DNA of 64,000 nt from a virus (Duplodnaviria > Heunggongvirae > Uroviricota > Caudoviricetes). The position numbers were made by a program, and so were the translations under genes. The DNA lies in IMG/VR virus record IMGVR_UViG_2875697941_000001. The stretch is one strand, 5' to 3'. Under the pieces are notes generated by a model. It did not search any database. It was not told the DNA's origin and worked only from the letters and a program-made list of their open reading frames with translations. The stretch's first letter is position 1; every line of letters starts with the position of its first letter. Below are positions 56,936 to 59,900 of this stretch, piece by piece.

Positions 56936-59900
56936 CTACGGCAGTGCTGGCCATTCAATATCCTGTGCAGTTGACGTATCAACACGGTTCAGCAACACCC
57001 GATACTTTTTCCAGGCTTCCAGCAATGAGGTTTCTTCCTCCGTTGCGATTTCCAGATCTACAGCATCCTGAAGTGGCGCAATATGCTCACTGGCTACCTG
57101 CATCAGGCTGTTTTTTGTTTCTTCCGCCTCTCGGATCCGGAACAGTTTTTCTGCTTCTGCATCTTTCACCCAGGCTGTGCCGTTCCACTTCTGAAACTCC
57201 CCTTCCGGCGATAACCAGGTAACATTTTCCGGTAACGGACCGAGTTCAGAAATAAATAACGCGTCCCCTGACGCTACGTCATAAACCGTTTTACCCCGAT
57301 GGTCTTCAACGAGATGCCACGATGCCTTATCACTGTTGAAAACAGCCACAAAGCCAGCAGGAATATCTGGTGGTGCAATATCGGTACTGTTTGCTGGCAG
57401 ACCTGTATGAGGCGGAATATATGCGTCACCTTCACCAATAAATTCATTAGTTCCGGCCAGCAGATTATAAATTTTTATGGTCCGTGGTTGTTCACTCATT
57501 CTGAATGCCATTATGCAAGCCATACCTACTGAGCCTTGTACACCCCAGGTATTTTGACCTGAGCTTGTATAACCATATTGATAAGTATCTTTAAAAACAC
57601 TGGGGTTAAATCGACGGCCATCTCTATGGCTGTGATTACCAGCTGCATTCGTGCTGCCACTTAAACTATGGGTATGCGCACCAGTGTTATTCGTGGATTT
57701 AGTGCCGTAATCAAACGACGATGTGGTTTTCGTCCCCAAATCCGTACTGGATGCGCTGGCGCTGTGGGTATGCGATTTAATGCCGTCCTGTTCCTGAGAC
57801 AATACGGCCCGACCACTGGCAGGTTTGCCCTTAATCGTCCAGCCACGCATATCAGGGATCACGCCTGACGGATAAGCGGCTGCAAGTTTCGGGTATGCAG
57901 ATTTGTCAAAAGTCTGCCCCTGCATCAGGGCATAGCCAGACGGAACGGTATCTGATGGCCACGGGATTGGTGCGCCAGGCGGATAAAACTGCTCTGATGG
58001 CGTATAGAGTGAATAAACTGTACCGTCCGTTAACCCTTCCGGCTTATTAGCAGAATATGCTGGTGACGTATGAATCGTCACGCTGGCATTACTGGTATAA
58101 TCCCATTGAATATTTACACCAGTCGCATAATTTCCGATTGCAACGTAAATATCGTAAGTATCACCAGATGTATTGACCCAGGCAAAATTTGTAAACCCTG
58201 TCGATGTGCGCTGCCATAAAGCACCAGTAATCCCCTTCGGATTACCATTACCTGCACGTAAAACAAGTTCAGATATACCTGCCTGTTGAGGTGACCCCAC
58301 GTTAAATCCAGCGCCACCAATCAACGTAATTGAAACAACAGAACTCGCCTGTGGCATGGTTACCGTTGCTAATTTGAACCAACCAGCACCACCGCTGAAT
58401 GACATTGTTGTTGAGTTAAGCGTACCAATATCTTTCGGCGTCAGTGTTATATCCGCTGAAAGCGCCTTACCATTCACCTTACGGGCAGAAGGTACCCGAC
58501 CATTCGCATTGTCATTAGCTGCTTTCACTGCTTTCGGTGTCGCAGCAAGCGTTTCAGATGTGCTGTTGGTTGCACTACTGAGCTGGACAATTCCTTTTTG
58601 TGCTGTCGTAGCGTCCTGTGCGGTGTATTTCCCGTTAGCCAGGTCATACGCGGCCTTAACGGCTTTTGGCGTTGCCGCCTGTGACTCGGAAGTGCTGTTA
58701 GTCGCACTGCTGAGCTGAACTATCCCTTTCTGTGCTGTCGTTGCATCCTGTGCGGTGTATTTCCCGTTAGCCAGGTCATACGCGGCCTTAACGGCTTTTG
58801 GCGTTGCCGCCTGTGACTCGGAAGTGCTGTTGGTCGCACTGCTGAGCTGTACTATCCCCTTTTTCGTCGTGCTCGCATCCTCAAGCGCCACGGCGGATGC
58901 AATATCCTCTGCCCGTTTTGCTGCTGTCTCGGCGCGCGTTGCCGCGGATTCCGCCGTACTTTTGCTCTGTGCTGCCGCTGCCGCACTGCCAGCAGCCTCT
59001 GTCGCCTTCGTGGATGCCGTCGTGGCGCTGCCCCTCGCTGCTGACGCCTGTCTGGTCGCCTCATCTTTTGAAGCAGACGCAGATGATGCCGATGACGCCG
59101 CCGAACTGGCGGACGATGCGGCAGCCGTTTTTGAGGATTCTGCGCTGGTTTCCGACGCTTTCGCGTTCGTTTCGGATGTCTTCGCTGCGGAAGCAGACCT
59201 CGCTGCTGCGCTGGCCTGTTCAGTGGCTTCGCCAGCCTTCGTTGTGGCTGTTGAAGCGGATGATGCGGCGCTTTCTGCCGATTTTCCGGCGGCGGTGGCA
59301 CTGACTGCTGCCTCCTCTGCCTTAATGGACGCCTCACGGGCCGATGATGCAGCTGCTGTCTCAGAGTCTGCCGCAGCTGAGGCGCTCTGTTCCGCTGCCG
59401 TTTCAGAAGACCTGGCATTCGTCTCGGACGTTTTTGCCGCCTTCACGGAATTTCCTGCCGCCGTTGCCGAGGAGGCTGCACTGCTGGCGCTTGTGGAGGC
59501 GTTCGTTTCTGATGATTTTGCCGCCTCTTTGGAGGCCGCCGCATCTCTGGCTGAAGTGGCGGCTTCTGACGCTTTCGTCGTCGCAGTGGATGCAGAAGTG
59601 GCTGCTGATTTTTGTGACGCTGCAGCATTCGTTTCTGACGTTTTCGCCGCACCGGCACTGGTGGCCGCCGCGCTTTTTGAGGACTCTGCAGCGGCAGCAC
59701 TTTTTGATGCTTCAGTGGCCTTTGTTGATGCCGTTCCTGCGCTGGAAGATGCTGACTGAGCCGACGACGCGGCCTGTCCGGCTGACGTGCTGGCTGCGCG
59801 TGCTGAGCCTGCAGCATCAGTCGCATGGGTTGCCGCCTCACGGGCTGATGTGCTGGCATCGCTGGCTGACTTCTTCGCGGCTGCCGTGTTCTGTGCCACC

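Follow-up and report, generated by a model that had tools for sequence, protein, structure and literature searches.

A 215-bp deletion probably created the stf-tfa fusion in a lambda-like prophage fragment joined to P1-like DNA

The window analysed here, a 64,000-nucleotide stretch of the IMG/VR virus record IMGVR_UViG_2875697941_000001, carries on its minus strand a lambda-type side tail fibre gene (stf) that continues without a stop codon into tfa, the gene of its assembly chaperone. Stf trimers assemble with the help of Tfa, which is also a component of the virion (PMC7291167). The single open reading frame (ORF) at 60262..56936 encodes 1108 residues if read from a GTG; the lambda-type start, MAVKISG, corresponds to the ATG at 60256 and gives a fused product of 1106 residues (60256..56936), designated stf(deltaC)::tfa. 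An earlier note on this DNA had claimed that no stop separates the Stf-like frame from Tfa, that the TAA of lambda-type stf is present but out of frame, and that a tfa ATG lies at 57511. The ORF listing and a three-frame translation of 57900..57300 confirm the stop-free frame from Stf into Tfa, and place the TAA at 57513..57511, out of the Stf frame, and the tfa ATG at 57511..57509. Specifically, GCATAATGG is present at the stf/tfa junction, and the local reading in the frame of this TAA ends in VWLA before the stop, resembling the VRLA with which lambda-type Stf ends.

Four Pfam families match the single product: phage_tail_N (PF08400) at residues 1–134 (E = 1.5e-71), three Phage_fiber_2 (PF03406) repeats, Collar (PF07484) at residues 761–808, and a complete Caudo_TAP (PF02413) at residues 987–1106, covering profile positions 1–130 of 131. 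The N-terminal domain, repeats, and collar of Stf are thus all present, as are full-length Caudo_TAP and the Tfa N-terminal region, and the spread of four families across one product indicates that the fused ORF is not a chance ORF. No Peptidase_S74 domain was found in the product, which matched only these four families.

The fused product has the composition Stf(1–912)-ACI-Tfa(1–191), with all parts on the minus strand. Its Stf part (57521..60256) corresponds to residues 1–912 of the 986-residue fibre of Escherichia coli SE11 and keeps the N-terminal domain, an Ala/Ser-rich shaft, the repeats, the collar, an ascending half-needle with three HxH motifs, and the tip. The junction, GGTATG/GCTTGC (57520..57522), was located by alignment to intact relatives. 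It is followed by three new linker codons, GCT TGC ATA (57512..57520), recognized from the translation and the junction alignment, which encode A-C-I and result from translating the final stf bases (G CTT GCA TAA) in the frame of tfa. The tfa gene itself (56936..57511; 191 codons and a stop) is intact and 100 per cent identical to SE11 tfa over 576 nucleotides.

Comparison with relatives shows what is missing. In a pairwise BLAST alignment, the window stf matches that of SE11 over 2,783 nucleotides without gaps (98.5 per cent identity), and the next 622 nucleotides, which comprise the last 10 nucleotides of stf, the whole of tfa, and the downstream flank, are 100 per cent identical to SE11. 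The offset between the two SE11 alignment blocks is exactly 215 bp, and phage PhiR42_1 likewise aligns in two pieces. A megablast search of phage genomes with positions 57200–57900 also returned two-piece matches, in which the 701-bp query corresponds to approximately 916 bp of each subject, and these subjects annotate stf and tfa as separate genes. The top 40 E. coli matches listed, in each of which both flanks of the 701-bp query match at 100 per cent identity, all have the extra 215 bp and two annotated genes. The suggestion of the earlier note that an indel fused the genes is therefore borne out as a 215-bp deletion, as judged against each of the close relatives examined, and in the alignments to lambda-type and E. 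coli stf-tfa junctions for which that note had called, intact homologues keep two genes whose stop and start overlap as TAATG. That an uninterrupted frame might be the normal state of homologues, which the same note had named as the observation that would count against a fusion, was rejected because all close relatives carry two genes; moreover, none of the other genomes searched has this junction.

The 215 bp make up the last 71 2/3 codons of stf. Base-by-base extension of the flanks places the junction at 57521, where a single G is common to both (1 nucleotide of microhomology), and the right end of the deletion lies 10 nucleotides before the tfa ATG. Stf residues 913–984 are lost, the last two deleted bases belonging to the Arg-984 codon. 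In the intact arrangement, tfa lies in the +2 frame with respect to stf; because of this arrangement at the TAATG overlap, and because 215 is 2 modulo 3, the Stf frame reads into tfa. The fused gene accordingly has no in-frame stf stop overlapping the tfa start. We propose that one illegitimate (non-homologous and non-site-specific) deletion of 215 bp in a lambda-like prophage fragment would have removed the end of stf and, through its length, would have joined the Stf frame to tfa to give the 1106-residue product.

The endpoints of the deletion in the intact sequence have only 1 nucleotide in common and no flanking direct repeats, and the repeat families that encode the HxH motifs lie elsewhere. 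Slipped-strand or homologous deletion between the HxH-encoding repeats was rejected on these grounds. A mosaic boundary between two prophages is likewise unsupported, as several genomes match the 701-bp query at 100 per cent on either side of the junction and differ only by the extra 215 bp. Site-specific recombination by a Pin/Cin/Gin-type invertase at tail-fibre crossover sites deserves mention, since SE11 and PhiR42_1 have a serine recombinase gene directly after tfa. However, no gix/cix-like core (AAACCNNGGTTT, allowing at most one mismatch) occurs anywhere near the breakpoints, the endpoints are without repeats, and the pin gene is absent from the lambdoid fragment of the window, which ends at 56847. 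We rejected invertase-mediated deletion for want of gix-like cores near the breakpoints and assign it a practically negligible probability. The endpoints without repeats, the 1-nucleotide microhomology, and the lack of a gix/cix-like core nearby instead point to illegitimate recombination as the origin of the deletion.

Apart from the lesion, the locus conforms to the lambda-type stf-tfa module found in Ur-lambda, SE11 (ECSE_RS26040/ECSE_RS03195), and PhiR42_1. It has the gene order J-lom-stf-tfa, 96–98.5 per cent DNA identity over stf residues 1–912, a tfa that is 100 per cent identical to that of SE11, the same N-terminal domain, repeats, and collar, and the GCATAATGG stop/start overlap sequence. 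It differs in having one ORF of 1106 residues instead of two of 986 and 191 residues, in the absence of 215 bp, and in a cut tfa Shine-Dalgarno sequence. Lambda PaPa offers a laboratory example of a side fibre gene inactivated by an indel next to an intact tfa, but there a mid-gene frameshift splits stf into two ORFs (orf-401/orf-314), whereas here a 3'-terminal deletion of 215 bp fuses stf to tfa. Side tail fibres are dispensable, so such lesions persist (PMC7291167, PMC9659904).

The lesion, which is missing from close intact relatives, was seen in no other record. A 101-bp junction query, with a cut-off of E <= 1e-28 that admits only contiguous matches, found the contiguous junction in none of 5,426 complete E. 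coli genomes, and exact junction strings of 29–39 nucleotides did not occur in GTDB species representatives, IMG/VR contigs, or JGI metagenome contigs. An exact-protein look-up returned no record of the 1106-residue protein. Nor was the identical fusion among the matches from a database of 5.8 billion protein clusters, which was searched with a query of approximately 208 residues of Stf, the ACI linker, and the 191 residues of Tfa, designed to let true fusions score above either partner.

This protein search did yield three other, independent in-frame Stf-Tfa fusions: P0001, P0002, and P0004 (on the public contigs L008, L009/L010, and L011). Like the fusion in the window, they are deletion-made joins of a gp37-like Stf fragment to Tfa that occur as singletons in defective prophages. 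Their junctions differ, one falling at Tfa residue 2, one at approximately residue 45, and one at approximately residue 104, and their deletions are much larger, extending to most of stf and to head and tail genes. In these cryptic prophages, nearly all head and tail genes are gone, and Nu1, a terminase stump, or gpW stands directly before the fibre fragment. The gene order of the P0001 remnant is one that we take to be DLP12-like. Because the fusions are singletons with differing junctions in gutted cryptic prophages, we conclude that Stf-Tfa fusions are sporadic by-products of deletional decay and not a conserved architecture. Automated annotation leaves the three proteins unnamed or calls them fibre proteins.

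The uniqueness of the junction in all collections searched would also suit an assembly or sequencing artefact, in which case stf would in truth have all 986 codons and be separate from tfa, with the 215 bp dropped during assembly or consensus calling. Many E. coli genomes carry more than one copy of the stf 3' end and tfa (a median of 2 places per genome), and the window has three unusual junctions within 6.6 kb, whereas the neighbouring P1-like DNA follows a phage-plasmid, pYLMB49b, collinearly for 56.8 kb at 99.96 per cent identity. Repeat collapse, however, usually joins at shared sequence, and the breakpoints here have only 1 nucleotide in common (3 nucleotides at a second deletion, in J, described below), with no repeat to mislead a k-mer or overlap assembler. 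Moreover, the similar deletional fusions are found in independent public assemblies of cryptic prophages. We therefore consider an artefact quite unlikely.

To relate the lost residues to structure, we used the crystal structure of the receptor-binding tip of phage T4 gp37 (2XGF). Intact SE11 Stf aligns to it over the final 243 residues with E = 3.9e-86, through a common 11-residue C-terminus. Position n of the 2XGF chain equals gp37 residue n+784, a conversion that puts the HSH motif on H929/H931, in agreement with the literature. In gp37, the collar (D10) comprises residues 811–881 and 1010–1026, the stem residues 882–931 and 960–1009, and the tip residues 932–959, and the needle binds seven iron ions via histidines that are essential for function (PMC6957217). 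The intact relative resembles gp37 in its collar, its seven HxH iron motifs, and its identical 11-residue C-terminus, while the window protein has only the N-terminal part of the collar, the ascending stem, and the tip. Specifically, Stf in the window stops just past its counterpart of gp37 G956. The first part of the collar, the ascending stem with three of the seven HxH motifs, and the tip are retained; lost are the descending stem, with the other four HxH motifs, and the collar-closing strand, so that neither a complete seven-HxH needle nor the C-terminal collar strand is present. The deleted segment, which has HAH, HTH, and HGH among its motifs, matches three of the six strands of the iron-stapled needle, namely the descending ones, together with the C-terminal strand of the collar. 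Because three strands are not enough to form a six-stranded antiparallel needle, we infer that the trimeric tip almost certainly cannot fold and that the fibre would be non-functional whatever the attached Tfa does. The earlier note had expected the fused chaperone to impair the fibre; the impairment is upheld in this form, but its primary cause would be the loss of the 72 C-terminal residues of Stf, more than the presence of Tfa.

The deletion also changes the start region of tfa. The right breakpoint cuts the native tfa Shine-Dalgarno sequence (GTGAG/GCTTGCATAATG). The native GAGG pairs with the anti-Shine-Dalgarno sequence at -5.6 kcal/mol, lies 8 nucleotides from the ATG, and is identical in lambda; its replacement here, AGGU, pairs at -3.7 kcal/mol and lies 11–12 nucleotides upstream of the tfa ATG. 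Stop-start coupling is lost as well, there being no upstream stop for the ATG at 57511. Since the right breakpoint removes both GAGG and the coupling of termination to reinitiation, free Tfa, a protein of approximately 21 kDa, would at best be made at a reduced level. The fused ORF could nevertheless be incidental, with the relevant product being free Tfa made from the ATG at 57511 or from an in-frame ATG four codons downstream; Tfa made in this way could act on further gp37-type fibres, for instance fibres of prophages resident in the same cell. In favour of this, tfa is unaltered from its ATG to its stop and identical to the SE11 gene, the weaker AGGU is still in place, and lambda Tfa has been reported to replace T4 gp38, which makes action in trans plausible in principle (PMC9659904). 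On the other hand, beyond the destroyed GAGG and the missing coupling, ribosomes reading through from stf would occlude the start site, and we saw no sign of selection to keep tfa, of which most E. coli genomes already have copies. Free Tfa as the relevant product is, in our judgement, unlikely. The internal start at 57511, which the earlier note had offered as an alternative to fusion of the genes, may thus yield a minor side product, but with GAGG cut and coupling gone, it is no alternative to the fusion.

A functional, selected fusion would require Tfa to act as a covalent intramolecular chaperone or as an adhesin cap at the distal end of a shortened fibre, the analogy being with S74 intramolecular chaperones or gp38-type adhesins. 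The deletion begins precisely where the tip-subdomain equivalent ends, which would put Tfa at the distal end, and there have been at least four origins of in-frame Stf-Tfa fusions. Yet half of the six-stranded needle and four of the seven iron sites are gone, and the iron-binding histidines are essential in T4; Pfam detects neither Peptidase_S74 nor another chaperone-release domain; J in the same fragment is frameshifted; and every fusion is a singleton with its own junction in a gutted or damaged prophage, none being conserved. Such a selected fusion is very improbable. We regard as equally improbable that the fusion is expressed to give a shortened side fibre with Tfa as its built-in chaperone or cap at the distal end; if this were true, the recurrence of fusions in the window, P0001, P0002, and P0004 would reflect some use in cryptic prophages and not pure decay. 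Fibres and spikes of the Peptidase_S74 type (such as T5 pb1 and the K1F endosialidase) also encode a chaperone in the same polypeptide as the fibre, but theirs is an unrelated domain with autoproteolytic release. Because the fused product has no S74 domain, we conclude that it is not an intramolecular-chaperone fibre; the fusion here is accidental.

The surroundings of the fused gene are damaged too. The host-specificity gene J (60991..64000, minus strand; its 5' end is beyond the window) has, by alignment to SE11 gpJ, its own 70-bp deletion at 63420–63422, with CGC as a 3-nucleotide microhomology. This deletion, being 1 modulo 3, causes a frameshift and splits J into two ORFs (63977..63417 and 63411..60991), in line with the frameshifted J reported in the earlier note. 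On its other side, the lambdoid DNA extends 90 bp beyond the tfa stop, to 56847, and there abuts a 149-bp end remnant of IS10 (ISVsa5; 56698..56846). Relatives carry a pin-type recombinase gene where the lambdoid DNA of the window ends. The best E. coli matches to the whole lambdoid segment are longer than the query, as would fit intact copies of both deleted regions; in strain H147, for example, the match extends over 7,339 bp for a query of 7,054 bp.

The remainder of the window (1–56846) is collinear with, and 99.95–99.97 per cent identical to, the P1-like phage-plasmid pYLMB49b of E. coli MB49 (NZ_CP073955.1), which carries C1, Phd/Doc, DarA, Ref, ParAB, and RepA. The IS10 remnant consists of the first 149 bp of the element and truncates the P1-like dmt ORF, which encodes a Dam-family methyltransferase. 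In pYLMB49b, a full IS10 lies at the same dmt site; in the window, the rest of the element is replaced by lambdoid DNA. This architecture, in which P1-like DNA joins a lambdoid tail-gene fragment, is absent from all records searched. Three novel junctions, the stf-tfa fusion among them, therefore fall within 6.6 kb of a truncated lambdoid fragment. The genes are clean apart from these junctions, which suggests that the lesions are recent. The connection that the earlier note drew between the fusion and the damaged J also holds, given that J carries a separate deletion and the lambdoid piece is a truncated fragment.

With the J deletion and the truncation at the IS10 stump, the lambdoid fragment is already defective, which would make the fusion a young pseudogene arising from prophage decay. 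We put at roughly 85 per cent the probability that an illegitimate 215-bp deletion made the stf-tfa fusion and that the fusion is such a young pseudogene and not a designed joining of fibre and chaperone. Several points weigh against this interpretation. The junction is known from assembled sequence only, so that an assembly or consensus error is possible. The loss of function rests on homology to the gp37 structure, and sequence alone cannot show that function is lost. The deletion aside, both gene parts are clean, with no stops and with a tfa that is 100 per cent identical to a functional-looking allele. Finally, the late promoter region driving transcription, if present, lies beyond the window.

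The stf-tfa fusion is, in sum, a real but ordinary lesion of prophage decay, one more case of a type already known, and of little consequence except for annotation: the proper label for the ORF is stf-tfa fusion pseudogene and not 1,106-residue tail fibre, and the lambdoid segment is best regarded as a defective fragment. The locus does show, in a clean and datable case, how a deletion of suitable length converts a TAATG stop-start overlap into a gene fusion. Recurring fusions of this sort in cryptic prophages can mislead automated surveys of domain architecture that find 'fibre plus Caudo_TAP' proteins.

Between stf and J lies lom (60321..60920, minus strand), an apparently intact gene whose product has 199 residues. 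The P1-like part of the window has a tail fibre gene of its own (ORF 25221..20827, 1464 residues). Relative to pYLMB49b, this gene has a 120-nucleotide difference in repeat number within its internal tandem repeats (23089–23277). A segment of approximately 150 residues of the P1-like fibre (approximately 21900–22400) is clearly homologous to a segment of the lambdoid Stf (57990–58450). Two fibre genes of different phage types on one molecule thus have a domain in common. At 20109–20243 and 20417–20851, downstream of the P1-like fibre gene, are a Tfa-like ORF of 144 residues and then no more than a 44-residue N-terminal stump of a Cin/Pin-type serine invertase. The P1-type invertible C-segment system appears to have decayed, as is also annotated in pYLMB49b.

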